A DNA stretch of 52,045 nt, from positions 1 through 52,045 of the forward strand of contig JAGWLP010000003.1 in NCBI GenBank assembly GCA_028864905.1, written 5' to 3'. Positions 23,814 to 28,659 of this stretch are shown here, piece by piece (positions within the stretch are counted from its first letter, which is position 1; every line of letters begins with the position of its first letter). The translations under genes and the position numbers were made by a program. The DNA is from Gammaproteobacteria bacterium (GTDB taxonomy: Bacteria > Pseudomonadota > Gammaproteobacteria > Natronospirales > REEB76). Below the pieces are notes generated by a model. It had not been told where the DNA came from, did no database searches, and saw only the letters and a list, made by a program, of their open reading frames with translations.

Positions 23814-25232
23814 ATGACTGCCAAGAGCCCTAGCGATGTACTCGAGCTGCTTGCGAAAGAAAACGTGAAATTCGTGGACTTCCGCTTCACCGACACCCGC
23901 GGCAAGGAACAGCACGTGAGCGTTCCAGCCCACACGGTAAGCGAAGAATTGTTCGAGGACGGAAAGATGTTCGACGGCTCTTCCATTGCCGGCTGGAAGG
24001 GCATCAACGAGTCGGACATGATTCTGATGCCGGACGTGGACTCCGCAGTAATTGACCCGTTTTTTGAGGAGACCACGCTCAACCTGCGCTGCGACGTGAT
24101 CGAGCCCTCCACCATGCAGGGTTACGGCCGTGATCCGCGCTCGCTCGCCAAGCGCGCCGAGGCCTATCTGAAGTCCACCGGCATTGCCGATATCGCCTAC
24201 TTCGGTCCGGAAAATGAGTTCTTTATTTTCGACACCATCCGCTGGGGCGCTGACATCAGCGGCGCGTTCTACAAGATTGATTCCAGGGAAGCTCACTGGA
24301 ACTCGGCAACCGCCTACGAGGACGGCAACTTCGGTCACCGCCCCGGCATAAAAGGTGGCTATTTCCCGGTACCGCCGGTGGATGCGCTGCAGGACATCCG
24401 CTCGGCCATGTGTCTGTCGCTGGAGGAAATGGGCCTGACGACGGAAGTGCACCACCATGAGGTGGCCACAGCCGGCCAATGCGAGATTGGCGTGGGGTTC
24501 GGCCACTTGGTGCAGAAGGCCGACGCGGTGCAGATTCTCAAATACGTGGTAATGAACGTCGCGCACGCTTATGGCAAGACCGCCACCTTCATGCCCAAAC
24601 CGTTGGTGGGCGACAATGGCAGCGGCATGCACGTGCACCAGTCCTTGGCCAAGGACGGCAAGAACCTGTTCAGCGGCAACCTTTACGGGGGTTTGTCGGA
24701 ACTCGCGCTCTACTACATCGGCGGCCTTGTTAAACACGCGCGCGCGCTCAACGCAATCACCAATGCCAGTACCAATAGTTACAAACGCCTGGTGCCGCAC
24801 TTCGAGGCGCCGGTGATGCTCGCGTATTCCGCTCGCAACCGCTCGGCCTCGATCCGCATTCCCTACGTGTCAAGCCCCAAGGCGCGACGCATCGAGGTGC
24901 GCTTCCCGGATTCGTCCGCCAACCCCTACTTCGCGTTCAGCGCCATGATGCTTGCCGGGCTCGACGGCATTCAGAACAAGATCCATCCGGGCGAGGCCAT
25001 GGACAAAGACCTCTACAACCTGCCGCCCGAGGAGGAAAAGAACATCCCGCAGGTGTGCTTCTCACTGGAGATGGCGCTTGAGCACCTGGACAACGATCGT
25101 GAATTCCTCAAACGCGGCGGCGTGTTCACCGACGATGTGATTGACGCCTACCTCACACTCAAGATGCAGGACGTGACGCGGTTGCGCATGAGCACGCATC
25201 CGGTGGAGTTCGACATGTATTACAGCCTGTAG
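23814..25232 (+). CDS. glnA: Glutamine synthetase type I
   Basis: [35 protein letters not shown] and adenylylation loop DLY; SD GGAG before ATG 23814. Confidence 0.99.
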
Positions 25233-25269
25233 CGCCGACGGGGACTTGCAGGAGCAACGCCGCCGGCAT

Positions 25270-25310
25270 AAAAAAGCCGGCGTACCGGGAATGGGAGTCG
25301 GTACGCCGGC
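25270..25310 (-). terminator. Intrinsic terminator on the minus strand
   Basis: 12-bp perfect stem GCCGGCGTACCG/CGGTACGCCGGC followed on the minus strand by TTTTTT. Confidence 0.75.
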
Positions 25311-25473
25311 AAGCTACCGGGCGCTTGGGGAGACGCCCGGGCCGGCCCCGAAAGGGAGGGACGGGGCCGGTCAGCGCACTGGGGTAGTGCGCTTTGGGAA
25401 TCAGGCAAGGTCCAATTCAGAATCCGATGCCTTGCGCTTCAGCTTCTTATTGGGGCTGAATTCACTTGATTTC
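25270..25473 (-). ncRNA. Candidate multi-hairpin small RNA with C-rich loops (5' end uncertain)
   Basis: Four perfect stems of 8, 9, 7 and 12 bp with minus-strand loops ACCCC, UCCCUCCCUUU, UCUCCCCAAG and ACUCCCAUUCC; the last is followed by U6. Upstream TTGTAT-N17-TAGTCT. Confidence 0.6.
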
Positions 25474-25476
25474 AAG

Positions 25477-25509
25477 TATTAGACTAGACCGTCCAGTCTA
25501 ATAATACAA
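25477..25509 (-). promoter_or_regulatory. Putative sigma70 promoter overlapped by a 27-bp palindromic operator
   Basis: -35 TTGTAT (25509-25504), 17 bp, -10 TAGTCT (25486-25481); palindrome TATTAGACT-AGACCGTCC-AGTCTAATA at 25477-25503. Confidence 0.5.
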
Positions 25510-25644
25510 ATTCCTGATTGAAATGAGCGCGGGGGATTTAATGACTCGAGATCAGGCCCAGAGTCAACGCTCAAGGCTGATGCCGCGCTTTCCTATCATC
25601 AGGCGCACTTGCGCCCTGCGAGCTATCTGAAATAGGCTGCCAAC

Positions 25645-26175
25645 ATGTGGAAATGGGTACTTGCAGTTGTCATCGCACTCGCCATGGGGGCAGCCATCGG
25701 GCAGGCCGACACCGTGTATCGCTGGGTGGACGCGCAAGGAAATGTGCACTACAGCGATCATCCGCACCCTGGTGCCACCAAAGTGAGGCTGCCACAAACC
25801 CAGACTTTTGCGCCTCCGATGACGGCGAAAGCTCAGGCTCCCGAGCCGCCACCCGCCGCAGCGCCCACGCCCGACTATAGCCAGTTCAGTTTGGCGTCGC
25901 CTGCAAATCAGGCCACATTGTGGTACGTGCACGAGGTAACGGTGTCTGTGAACCTCGTGCCGCAACTGCGTCCTGGTGACACCATCACGTATCACCTGGA
26001 CGGCAAGACCATTGGGCCAACCGAGGTGACATCCGTGACTTTCAAGGACGTGGATCGCGGCGAGCATACGGCCTCCGCCGAGCTGAATTCTGTCAACGGC
26101 GCAAGCATGAACGCCGGGCCAGTCACGTTTTACGTCCGTCAAAAATCGATTCTTGCACCAAAGCCGCCTGGTTAG
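25645..26175 (+). CDS. DUF4124 domain-containing secreted protein with a C-terminal Ig-like region
   Basis: Signal peptide, VYRWVDAQGNVHYSDHP, Pro-rich linker, then DRGEH beta-rich domain; upstream of glnL. Confidence 0.85.
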   Translation: MWKWVLAVVIALAMGAAIGQADTVYRWVDAQGNVHYSDHPHPGATKVRLPQTQTFAPPMTAKAQAPEPPPAAAPTPDYSQFSLASPANQATLWYVHEVTVSVNLVPQLRPGDTITYHLDGKTIGPTEVTSVTFKDVDRGEHTASAELNSVNGASMNAGPVTFYVRQKSILAPKPPG

Positions 26176-26183
26176 GGTGCGTC

Positions 26184-26200
26184 TGCACTACAATGGTGCG
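26184..26200. promoter_or_regulatory. NtrC box at the glnL 5' end (autorepression)
   Basis: TGCACTACAATGGTGCG, close to the E. coli glnLp site TGCACTAAAATGGTGCA. Confidence 0.75.
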
Positions 26201-27287
26201 GGTGGAAAGTCCATTCGCGCCCTCGCCATCACTGCTTGAGCATATGTCCACCGGCCTGTTATGGCTGGACCAGTCACTGCATCCTCGTTATTTCAATCCG
26301 GCCGCGGAAACCCTTCTGGATCTCGATGGCCGCACAGGCAAGTCCCGGGGGATTGGCGAGTCTCTGCCTGGAAATACTGAATTCCTCGCAACTCTGGAAC
26401 GGGTGCAACACACCGGTGAAACCGTCACACAACGTGAACTGGTGTTAACCGTCGGTACGGCGAACGCGCGTCACACCCTGACCGTGGATTGCACGGTGTC
26501 CGTCCTGGCGGAGCGCGATGCAAGCCAGGAGCTGCTCGTGGAACTGGTGCCACTCGATCGACACATGCGTATCAGTCATGAAGCCGGCCTGAGCCAGCAA
26601 AGCGGGGTGAACCGCGAGTTGGCGCGCAGCCTGGCGCACGAAGTGAAAAACCCGCTTGGCGGGATCCGCGCTGCCGCGCAGCTCCTCGAGCGCAAGTTCA
26701 CGCAACCGAATCTGGCGGACTACACGCAAATCATCATCAGCGAAGTGGATCGTTTGGCCGCGCTGGTGGATAGCCTGCTGGGCCCGGTCCAGCCTGCGAG
26801 GCCCAGCGAGATTAATCTGCACGAACTCATGGAACACGTGGCGCGCCTCATGGGGGCGGCAGCCGGCGGCCCGAAAATCCTGCGCGACTACGATCCCAGT
26901 TTGCCGGAACTGTGGCTCGACCGTGGCCAGATGGTGCAGGCCTTGCTCAATCTCGCCAAGAACGCCTGCGAGGCGGCTGGTGCTCGCGGTCGCGTAATTT
27001 TGCGCACCCGGGCGGTGCGGCAATTCACGCTCAACGGCGTGCGCCACCGGTTGGTGGCCTGCGCCGACATCGAAGATGACGGTCCCGGCATTCCGGCAGC
27101 CACCCGCCCGAAACTCTTTATGCCGCTAACCAGCAACAAGCCGTCGGGTTCGGGCCTGGGGCTGAGCATTGCCCAGGAGCTGGTGACCCGCCAAGGCGGG
27201 CTCATCGAATATCACAGCCAGCCGGGGTGCACTGTGTTCTCCGTGCTGTTACCGCTGCAAACCGGTCATGACCGCACGCACGCCTGA
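26193..27287 (+). CDS. glnL: Nitrogen regulation sensor kinase NtrB
   Basis: PAS domain, LAHEVKNPLGGIR H-box, DYDPSLP, DDGPGI and GSGLGL; start may be GTG 26202. Confidence 0.95.
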   Translation: MVRVESPFAPSPSLLEHMSTGLLWLDQSLHPRYFNPAAETLLDLDGRTGKSRGIGESLPGNTEFLATLERVQHTGETVTQRELVLTVGTANARHTLTVDCTVSVLAERDASQELLVELVPLDRHMRISHEAGLSQQSGVNRELARSLAHEVKNPLGGIRAAAQLLERKFTQPNLADYTQIIISEVDRLAALVDSLLGPVQPARPSEINLHELMEHVARLMGAAAGGPKILRDYDPSLPELWLDRGQMVQALLNLAKNACEAAGARGRVILRTRAVRQFTLNGVRHRLVACADIEDDGPGIPAATRPKLFMPLTSNKPSGSGLGLSIAQELVTRQGGLIEYHSQPGCTVFSVLLPLQTGHDRTHA

Positions 27288-28659
27288 AATCTGGTTGCTG
27301 GATGATGATCCCGCGCTGCGGCGGCTCACTGGGGAAGCCCTAAGCGATGCCGGTCACGCCACGCGTGAATTTGCCGAAGTCGCGGAATTGCAGCAGGCGC
27401 TGGCAAACAAGTTGCCGGCGCTTTTGATTACCGACATCCGCCTGCCCGGAAGTGACGGCTTGCAGTTGCTGGCGCAACTGCACCAGGCGCACCCGCAGCT
27501 GCCGGTGGTGGTGGTGACTGCACACAGCGATCTGCAAAGTGCCGTCGCGGCCTATCAAGGCGGGGCCTTTGAATATCTGCCCAAACCCTTCGACCTAAAC
27601 GAACTGCTGAGCGTCGTGGAGCGTGCGCTGCAGCAGACCGGTCCGCAATCCGCACCGCTCGCCGTGGAACCCGAGGCTGAGCATGTCCTGATCGGCGATT
27701 CGCCGGCCATGCAGATTGTGTATCGCAGCATCGCGCGGCTCGCCGGCACGCAGTTCACGGTGCTCATCAGCGGCGAATCGGGCACCGGTAAGGAACTCGC
27801 TGCGCGCGCATTGCACCGCCACAGTCTGCGCGCGCAGCGGGCGTTCATTGCCCTGAACACCGCGGCGATTCCCGCGGAGCTTCTGGAGTCGGAATTGTTC
27901 GGCCATGAGCGCGGCGCATTCACCGGCGCCAGTACGCGCCATGCGGGACGCTTCGAACAGGCGCAGGGCGGCACGTTGTTTCTGGATGAAATTGGCGACA
28001 TGCCCATCGCGCTGCAAACCCGTTTGCTGCGCGTGCTGGCCGAGGGCGAGTTTTACCGCGTCGGAGGCCACGCCGCGCTGCACTCCGATGTCCGGGTGTT
28101 GGCCGCCACGCATCAGGATCTGGATGAATTGGTGCGCCAGGGGCGCTTTCGCGAAGATCTGTTCCACCGTCTGAACGTCGTGCGCATCCACATGCCGGCG
28201 CTGCGCGAACGCCTCGAAGACATTCCGCTGCTGCTCCAGCATTTTGTCGCCAGCGCCTCCCGCGAACTGGGCACCGCACCCAAACGTTTCACCGCCGAGG
28301 CCATGCGTGCGCTGCAGCAGCGCGCCTGGCCGGGGAATGTACGCGAGCTCGCGAATGCCTGTCGGCGTCTGACGCTCATGACCGCGGGGCGCATCATTCA
28401 CCAGAGTGATCTTGACGCGCTTGCAGTTGCGCGTCTCAACGGCGGACTGGCAGCGGATCAATGGCCGCAGCAGTTACGCGCCTGGGTGCAACGCGAACTG
28501 CTGTCCGGAACCGCCGGCATTGCAGAACGCGCGCAGACCGAGCTCAGCCGCATCATGATCGAAACCGCGCTCGAACACACCGGTGGACGTCGCCAGCAAG
28601 CGGCGCGCCGCCTGGGAATGGGCCGCAACACCCTGGCGCGCAAACTCAAGCGCGGTTGA
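27268..28659 (+). CDS. glnG: Nitrogen regulation response regulator NtrC
   Basis: Receiver domain, GESGTGKEL, ESELFGHERGAFTGA, WPGNVREL and HTH LGMGRNTLARKL. Confidence 0.96.
   Translation: MTARTPEIWLLDDDPALRRLTGEALSDAGHATREFAEVAELQQALANKLPALLITDIRLPGSDGLQLLAQLHQAHPQLPVVVVTAHSDLQSAVAAYQGGAFEYLPKPFDLNELLSVVERALQQTGPQSAPLAVEPEAEHVLIGDSPAMQIVYRSIARLAGTQFTVLISGESGTGKELAARALHRHSLRAQRAFIALNTAAIPAELLESELFGHERGAFTGASTRHAGRFEQAQGGTLFLDEIGDMPIALQTRLLRVLAEGEFYRVGGHAALHSDVRVLAATHQDLDELVRQGRFREDLFHRLNVVRIHMPALRERLEDIPLLLQHFVASASRELGTAPKRFTAEAMRALQQRAWPGNVRELANACRRLTLMTAGRIIHQSDLDALAVARLNGGLAADQWPQQLRAWVQRELLSGTAGIAERAQTELSRIMIETALEHTGGRRQQAARRLGMGRNTLARKLKRG

Follow-up and report, generated by a model that had tools for sequence, protein, structure and literature searches.

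The window analysed here is a stretch of 52,045 nucleotides of a gammaproteobacterium (GTDB lineage Natronospirales; REEB76; assembly GCA_028864905.1, contig JAGWLP010000003.1). Between glnA and a DUF4124-ntrB-ntrC gene group it contains a real, conserved, low-copy RNA gene that is absent from the Rfam catalogue. The gene is located on the minus strand and its conserved core, of 133 nt (positions 25270-25402), consists of a short leader, four consecutive hairpins with C-rich apical loops and a closing U6; the loops are the constant part of the RNA, while the stems change with compensation. We consider it probable that this segment is the core of an independently transcribed small RNA (sRNA) of the sX13 type, whose loops would pair with G-rich ribosome-binding sites.

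Structure and strand of the RNA

The core starts with a single-stranded 5′ leader of 9 nt, GAUUCCCAA (25394-25402), which reads GGUCCCAAC in most relatives. It is followed by hairpin 1 (25373-25393; 8 bp, loop ACCCC), hairpin 2 (25342-25370; 9 bp, loop UCCCUCCCUUU) and hairpin 3 (25317-25340; 7 bp, loop UCUCCCCAAG), all with perfect stems that are found in the minimum free energy fold, and by hairpin 4 (25270-25310; 12 bp, loop ACUCCCAUUCC), an intrinsic terminator, whose stem spans 25276-25310 and whose U6 on the minus strand (A6 on the plus strand) occupies 25270-25275. The loop of hairpin 2 includes the anti-Shine-Dalgarno core of 16S rRNA, CCUCC; in the cmscan alignment, the loop of hairpin 3 is similar to the second loop of the sX13 consensus. 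The minus strand of 25233-25480 folds with −118.3 kcal/mol, against a mean of −82.9 for shuffled sequences (z = −7.0, with 0/200 shuffles equal), and reproduces the four hairpins; the plus strand gave z = −5.2 in the same test.

All stems, loops, leader and U6 described in the original prediction are present in the sequence, as is the 412-bp gap between the glnA stop (25232) and the start of the DUF4124 open reading frame (ORF; 25645). The two weaker upstream stems that it also listed (25405-25460) appear in the minus-strand fold, but they belong to the 5′ extension of the presumed primary transcript (25403-25474), and are placed outside the conserved unit because this stretch varies among relatives in both sequence and length. 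The consensus terminator scan of the window, which accepts loops of 3-8 nt, returned no terminator-like site; it missed hairpin 4 because the loop of this hairpin has 11 nt. The only minus-strand ORF over the hairpins (25220-25408, 62 aa, TTG start) was rejected as a gene, since it is broken by many indels of 1 or 2 nt among the aligned relatives, with core lengths of 123-138 nt, in keeping with the earlier view that no credible minus-strand gene ends here.

The RNA strand is assigned to the minus strand of the window because of the U-tail, the excess of G-U pairs, the side of the promoter and the position of the copies behind co-oriented genes. In the 22 sequences aligned, four columns of the U-run that follows hairpin 4 never vary, and the plus strand of the window has no hairpin followed by a U-run. 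On the minus reading, the stems contain 62 G-U/U-G cells vs 22 A-C/C-A cells among 40 distinct rows, a count that is somewhat biased by an alignment fitted on the minus strand. Paralogous copies begin 1-8 nt past the stop codon of same-strand genes and the promoter-like sites, described below, read towards the minus-strand RNA. Together with the U6 and the conservation, these strand tests support the terminated minus-strand RNA of about 130-205 nt, convergent with glnA, that had been predicted.

Conservation and covariation

A covariance model (R1) was built from 22 copies, with 134 positions and 36 base pairs; in R1 and in the alignments A1, A2 and A3, 8 of the 22 seed rows come from unpublished genomes (G001, G006, G008, G010, G017 and G026), and the tallies of the DNA search and of R1 include these six unpublished genomes, which are among the 41 of the family. 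The window copy covers model positions 1-134 with 143.9 bits. In its own assembly (1.49 Mb in 101 contigs, 75% complete, GC content 63%) a second copy scores 94.9 bits and everything else at most 21 bits. When 61 relatives were searched at the DNA level, 20 had the element: 15/20 in genus g1, 4/5 in g3, 0/11 in genus g2 and 0/25 in other families. R1 matches 38 of the 41 family genomes (18/20 in g1, 4/5 in g3 and 15/15 in g2), with one to three copies each, and all 21 family genomes that are at least 90% complete; it matches none of 25 genomes from eight sister families of the order. Eight matches of 20-29 bits in 149 other genomes of the class were rejected as homologues, their alignments resting on the terminator hairpin.

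The stems covary well above controls. When 22 copies were aligned with MAFFT, 94.4% of the cells paired and 16 of the 36 pairs had changed on both sides, vs 5.8 ± 1.7 in shuffles (0/500 reach the observed value) and 2-6 with slid partners. RNAalifold independently recovered the same four helices, with compensatory changes in 15/32 pairs. When the count was repeated on the 32 copies from published genomes only, 96.1% of the cells paired and 26/36 pairs showed double changes (shuffles 15.6 ± 1.9, 0/500; slid partners 5-13), in an alignment made with R1 that hence leans towards the model. Such double changes affect 8/8 pairs of hairpin 1, 8/9 of hairpin 2 and 8/12 of hairpin 4. In the 43 copies scoring at least 50 bits, loop 3 contains CCC without exception, and CCCC in 41; CCC is also found in loop 2 (41/43), loop 4 (38/43), loop 1 (32/42) and the leader (19/43). 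Conserved C-rich loops on covarying stems, which the original prediction regarded as decisive, are thus what the alignments contain.

Relationship to known RNA families

No family of Rfam 15 reaches its gathering score in the whole window, so that the RNA is not already catalogued. At relaxed thresholds the best match is sX13, aligned end to end on the minus strand with 25.3 bits vs a cut-off of 50 (E = 0.011); sX13, which had been named as an analogue, is therefore the nearest catalogued family. The sX13 model (RF02232) exceeds its cut-off in 0/41 family genomes, with a best score of 31.8 bits at another locus; searched in the own genome, it gave only a 14.2-bit match elsewhere, the window match falling outside the 150 candidates scored. 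In the class-wide sample, one genome holds a true sX13, with 103 bits and immediately downstream of polA, while ten others reach 30-38 bits and two of these (G162 and G112) are also directly downstream of polA. R1, run with filters off, gives 23.5 bits on the true sX13 locus and 26-43 bits on three of the 30-38-bit loci.

According to the published study (PMC3771888), sX13 has 115 nt and three stem-loops with 4C, 4C and 5C loops, is always found downstream of polA and only in Xanthomonadaceae, and represses, independently of Hfq, mRNAs with G-rich motifs near the start codon; the same study gives experimental support for pairing between loops and G-motifs. Like sX13, the window RNA begins unstructured and continues as a series of stable hairpins that closes with the terminator; its apical loops bear CCCC-type motifs, the penultimate loop reading ...CUCCCCAAG in both, and it is likewise an independent gene in an intergenic region. 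It differs in the number of hairpins, four instead of three, in the length of the core, which is 133 nt (from 123 to 138 nt in relatives) as against 115 nt, in lying between glnA and DUF4124-ntrBC rather than downstream of polA, in the presence of one to three paralogues per genome, and in scoring below the Rfam cut-off.

Other C-rich families are more distant. The anti-hemB/ncS04 RNA of Burkholderia (RF02837; PMC5688073) is likewise a short multi-hairpin sRNA with pyrimidine- or C-rich unpaired stretches. In the window its model (cut-off 49.5) finds nothing up to E = 10, nor does it match in the own genome. The window RNA also differs from it in locus and in type of promoter. The cuckoo/CcsR/alpha-r14 RNAs (RF02344 and RF02791; PMC4615179) also have two to four adjacent hairpins, variable stems rich in compensatory changes, C-rich loops resembling the anti-Shine-Dalgarno and several loci per genome. 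However, their defining motif, CCUCCUCCC, is absent from all four loops of the window RNA, where only CCCUCCC occurs, in loop 2; CcsR1 scores 13.9 bits vs a cut-off of 65.3, and the host is a member of the Gammaproteobacteria, not of the Alphaproteobacteria. In RsaE/RoxS and RepG, C-rich loops pair with G-rich sites of mRNAs. The same working principle, C-rich loops acting on G-rich mRNA sites, is reported in a study on the 6C sRNA of Actinobacteria (PMC6486639). From 6C, RsaE/RoxS and RepG the window RNA differs in sequence, structure and hosts, which are unrelated, and none of their models matches.

Two sRNAs are known from the glnA-ntrBC locus, as in our case: NrsZ of Pseudomonas, an NtrC- and sigma-54-dependent RNA encoded downstream of ntrC and on its strand, and GlnZ of enterobacteria, which is cut from the glnA 3′ untranslated region (UTR) and thus has the strand of glnA. 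The window RNA, in contrast, is on the opposite strand, upstream of ntrB and divergent from it, and Rfam gave no hit to either. Sponges of the CsrB/Rsm type carry many GGA in the loops of the transcribed strand; in the window GGA is on the plus strand only, whereas the RNA is on the minus strand, and Rfam matches were again absent. The window RNA therefore fails the formal membership tests of every catalogued family compared.

Sequence comparison points to a wider group. The Rfam models of sX13 and anti-hemB may each describe a part of a single broad family. At E ≤ 0.001, anti-hemB has matches in 75 of 151 genomes of the class, nine of them over the cut-off (the sample includes the unpublished G102 and G179), and among 14 anti-hemB-matching RNAs that were checked, eight adjoin polA. 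The two models hit the same loci in other gammaproteobacterial families (G162:C1:2822614-2822725, G112:C1:1014049-1014452 and G066:C9:19693-19794), and tandem copies were seen in G112 and G185. The window RNA is probably best seen as a paralogous offshoot of this sX13/anti-hemB-like group. It can be called new in the sense of uncatalogued, as the original prediction did, but it is not wholly new in kind, since the family also possesses a polA-linked paralogue of the same sX13-/anti-hemB-like set. Literature searches on DUF4124 with small RNA and on C-rich loops returned nothing on this RNA.

Candidate promoter and shared palindrome

Transcription would start near position 25474, at a candidate sigma-70-type promoter on the minus strand (25481-25509), proposed by comparison only, with a −35-like TTGTAT (25509-25504), a 17-nt spacer and a −10-like TAGTCT (25486-25481). 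The promoter call rests on relatives, because the hexamers of the window are weak and fail the consensus scan. A 21-bp palindrome, TAGACTnGACnGTCnAGTCTA (25480-25500), presumably an operator, overlaps the promoter. All 17 loci of genus g1 have a TTGCAA-like hexamer at 4 nt from the palindrome, which leaves TAGTCT as the −10 element after a 17-nt spacer. Genus g2 has a separate promoter on the RNA strand, TTGCAA-17-TATGAT, ahead of the palindrome; the scan finds it in one locus and misses it in a second one, for which other sites are proposed. No consistent GG-N10-GC, as expected for sigma-54/NtrC, was seen by eye upstream of the RNA or of DUF4124, and no ntrB-linked locus has a sigma-E-type motif.

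In counts restricted to published genomes, the own genome has exactly three copies of the palindrome, without near-matches up to two mismatches, and 0 of its reversed control. The other two sites, at G000:C51:15706-15726 and G000:C84:5308-5328, are in the promoters of mlaFEDC and of emrAB/tolC. Three sites are also present in each of five other good g1 or g2 genomes (published), always at the sRNA, at mlaF and at emrA/tolC, the latter region having emrA (HlyD) and emrB (MFS) divergently arranged with a tolC-like gene. At both mla and emrA the first half of the palindrome, TAGACT, takes the place of a −10 element after TTGAC(A/G) and a spacer of 17-18 nt; the mla promoter serves mlaF-mlaE-mlaD-mlaC. 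The g3 genomes, which are without the ntrB-linked copy, have perfect palindromes at mla and at emrA/tolC in four genomes and at mla alone in G030 (counts that include the unpublished G026), and R1 detects no RNA beside these g3 sites. No regulator gene adjoining the palindrome sites was found in G004, and the literature search for the palindrome returned nothing relevant, its matches being plant papers only.

Paralogues and the polA-linked RNA

The second copy of the own genome, found by DNA search at G000:C78:4225-4330 (74% identity), extends over G000:C78:4229-4354 (L035 1501-1626, minus strand). It begins 1 nt past the stop of a small pagL-like outer-membrane gene and faces a convergent ORF, named short-chain-dehydrogenase-like from its translation only. 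The second copy, like its counterparts in three other loci, directly follows the pagL-like gene, which reaches 24.7 bits with Pfam PagL (cut-off 23), and hairpin 4 of the second copy looks as if it also terminated the gene. The g3 copies follow a DoxX gene (Pfam) or genes that, from translations only, are glutathione-transferase-like or flavin-reductase-like. Judged by this position, the pagL- and g3-linked copies look like 3′-UTR-type sRNAs. A third and more divergent class of paralogues was noticed in g1 (L152, L155-L157, L159, L161 and L162, each near 1501-1628), which scores 28-57 bits with R1 and opens with GGUCUC; its first helix is very short and its last loop long.

Directly downstream of polA the family has another RNA, with three to four hairpins and loops such as CCUCCCUGA, CUCCCCCAAG and CUCCCCCC. 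This C-rich-loop sRNA was located at L197 1210-1366 (minus strand), L199 2756-2909 (plus strand), L198 1156-1292 and L200 1183-1291; it scores 30-38 bits with R1 in 4/4 loci, and 31-47 bits with anti-hemB (cut-off 49.5), 30 bits with sX13 and 41 bits with ar14 in Rfam. It is likelier than the window RNA to be the positional counterpart of sX13. In G004, G021 and G009 the polA gene shares a contig with the ntrB-linked RNA, at a distance of 87-97 kb; it was not found in the incomplete own genome. In two of the four loci an exact GGAACTT-N15-17-TCAAA motif, which is sigma-E-like, stands before the polA-linked RNA.

In view of the shared operator, the pagL-linked paralogue and the sigma-E-like motif before the polA-linked RNA, the signal to which the RNA responds may be the state of the envelope or its lipids and not nitrogen. 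No link to nitrogen control was seen, and the operator upstream of the RNA is instead the one common to mla and emrAB/tolC.

Transcript evidence

The expression data are contigs assembled from the RNA libraries of public runs; they are attributed to relatives because they are only 90-99% alike to the window. Run X10 contains a 210-nt contig, which covers 25261-25449 and 20 further letters at the 5′ side (to about 25469), and run X11, from another study, a contig of 192 nt covering 25259-25407 with 41 further unaligned letters. Both give a weak hint of an RNA of about 190-210 nt.

Locus layout and neighbouring genes

The sRNA is flanked by glnA (23823-25232, plus strand; NCBIfam glutamate--ammonia ligase, 875 bits), with which it is convergent, and by the DUF4124 gene, ntrB and ntrC (25645-28659, plus strand; Pfam DUF4124, NCBIfam NR(II) and NR(I)), from which it is divergent. 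The latter arrangement is found in 31/31 loci, 17 of genus g1 and 14 of genus g2 (5/17 of the g1 loci are from unpublished genomes), while glnA is convergent and downstream of the sRNA, inside the retrieved stretch, in 29 of the 31. In most loci of g2, and in a few of g1, a gene for a GNAT acetyltransferase (Pfam Acetyltransf_4) separates the sRNA from glnA. Because this gene stands between the two in many relatives, the constant partner of the sRNA is the upstream region of the divergent DUF4124-ntrBC operon, not glnA, to which the RNA had been tied originally. The GNAT protein, of about 180 aa, is encoded downstream of the sRNA in L052, L055, L058-L060, L063-L066 and L151; from its position beside glnA we presume that it may protect glutamine synthetase from inhibitors. 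The 80 best loci of a GlnA search have 74-82% identity and none is from the own family; the best of those with a name are gammaproteobacterial metagenome-assembled genomes (MAGs).

A second inverted repeat, TGACTC-N13-GAGTCA (25542-25566), lies between the 21-bp palindrome and the DUF4124 start, and comparable repeats, judged by eye, occupy the same place in relatives (TGACC-N5-GGTCA in g2). It may be a control site of DUF4124-ntrBC.

Mechanism and alternative explanations

In the mechanism that we propose, RNA synthesis would initiate at the sigma-70-type promoter, under the overlapping operator, and would stop at hairpin 4 and its U6, yielding a primary RNA of about 205 nt, from which the variable 5′ part may be trimmed to leave the 133-nt core. 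The core displays runs of at least three C in its four apical loops and, in many copies, also in the leader; by analogy with sX13 and other C-loop sRNAs, the loops would base-pair with G-rich segments in or close to the ribosome-binding sites of several mRNAs, lowering their translation and stability. Its build, with repeated and accessible C-runs, the anti-Shine-Dalgarno core CCUCC in one loop, stable stems and a U-tail, suits the mode of action of sX13. Hfq is encoded in 4/5 genomes checked and CsrA in 5/5.

Several observations weigh against this proposal. When the five single-stranded segments were compared by RNAduplex with positions −35 to +18 of the candidate starts of 1333 crude ORFs, 532 genes were found at ≤ −18 kcal/mol vs 613 for reversed loops, with no excess, and none of them is put forward as a target. 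The consensus scan of the window yielded 0 promoter-like sites, and its own hexamers match three of six bases each. R1 derives partly from unpublished genomes, the E-values are rough and the alignments A3 and A4 were fitted to the model. CsrA is encoded in the genome and five GGA lie in the plus-strand loops. In run X3, a 255-nt contig (25166-25420) connects the 3′ end of glnA with the element, and a 309-nt contig of X11 (24977-25285) runs from glnA into hairpin 4, so that RNA, or contaminating DNA, joins the two; all contigs are strandless and carry information neither on ends nor on expression level.

A minus-strand RNA that acts mainly through a protein, e.g., a poly(C)-binding one, or as a general Shine-Dalgarno decoy, and not on specific mRNAs, is an unlikely explanation, although four to five repeated C-rich sites would suit titration, CCUCC in loop 2 equals the anti-Shine-Dalgarno core of the 16S rRNA and the target scan provided no specific candidates. 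We know of no bacterial sponge system that binds C-loops, and no gene for a protein partner is linked to the locus. Moreover sX13, the nearest studied relative, represses particular mRNAs by pairing of its loops with G-motifs (PMC3771888).

It is rather improbable that the element is chiefly cis-acting, i.e., a stack of terminators or an insulator, or an antisense to the 3′ end of glnA or of the GNAT gene, without targets in trans. The convergent arrangement, the contigs bridging the glnA 3′ end and the element, and the paralogues at gene 3′ ends, where they also serve as terminators, would agree with this explanation. However, a terminator has no need of four hairpins whose loops stay fixed in three genera as the stems diverge, the RNA does not change with its convergent partner, be it glnA or the GNAT gene, and it has its own promoter-like site and a conserved operator.

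The original prediction also offered a plus-strand RNA from the glnA 3′ UTR, whose GGA loops would titrate CsrA. The eight GGA that it counted on the plus strand in 25240-25400 are indeed there, five of them in loops, CsrA is present in all the genomes checked, and plus-strand read-through may occur, because the X3 and X11 contigs join the glnA 3′ end to the element. Yet every strand test disfavours this alternative, which we regard as very unlikely: the invariant U-run and the G-U excess belong to the minus strand and no plus-strand U-run follows the hairpins, loop 3 of g2 reads CUACCCCA and leaves no GGA on the opposite strand, the GNAT gene and not glnA adjoins the RNA in many relatives, and the paralogues follow co-oriented genes in the minus sense. 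Finally, a dispersed repeat of the repetitive extragenic palindromic (REP) type, or a chance cluster of palindromes, could be imagined from back-to-back palindromes in a genome with 63% GC, but two copies only in the 1.49-Mb assembly and one to three in relatives, synteny in 31/31 loci and covariation well above controls make it negligible.

Returning to the base-pairing sRNA, a broader scheme can be outlined, which, with all its parts taken together, is tentative and doubtful. The RNA might be the post-transcriptional arm of a minimal regulon for outer-membrane lipid homeostasis, in which one dimeric regulator would bind the identical palindrome at the mlaFEDC, emrAB/tolC and sRNA promoters; the paralogue at the 3′ end of the pagL-like gene and the polA-linked cousin, driven by a sigma-E-type promoter, would belong to the same network of envelope surveillance; and sX13, anti-hemB and the window RNA would descend from one ancient sRNA of Gamma- and Betaproteobacteria, often polA-linked, that Rfam has split narrowly.

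Implications

The class of mechanism considered here is already well known, and the gain is in this respect incremental; the regulatory link is a putative one. The RNA adds a family-wide, strongly covarying sRNA to a lineage that is represented by MAGs only and had no catalogued regulatory RNA. RNAs of the sX13-like kind are not limited to Xanthomonadaceae or to the polA locus, and duplication can bring them to new loci and to 3′ UTRs. The operator shared with mlaFEDC and emrAB/tolC leads to a testable hypothesis on the controlling signal, which may be the state of the envelope and its lipids, not nitrogen.

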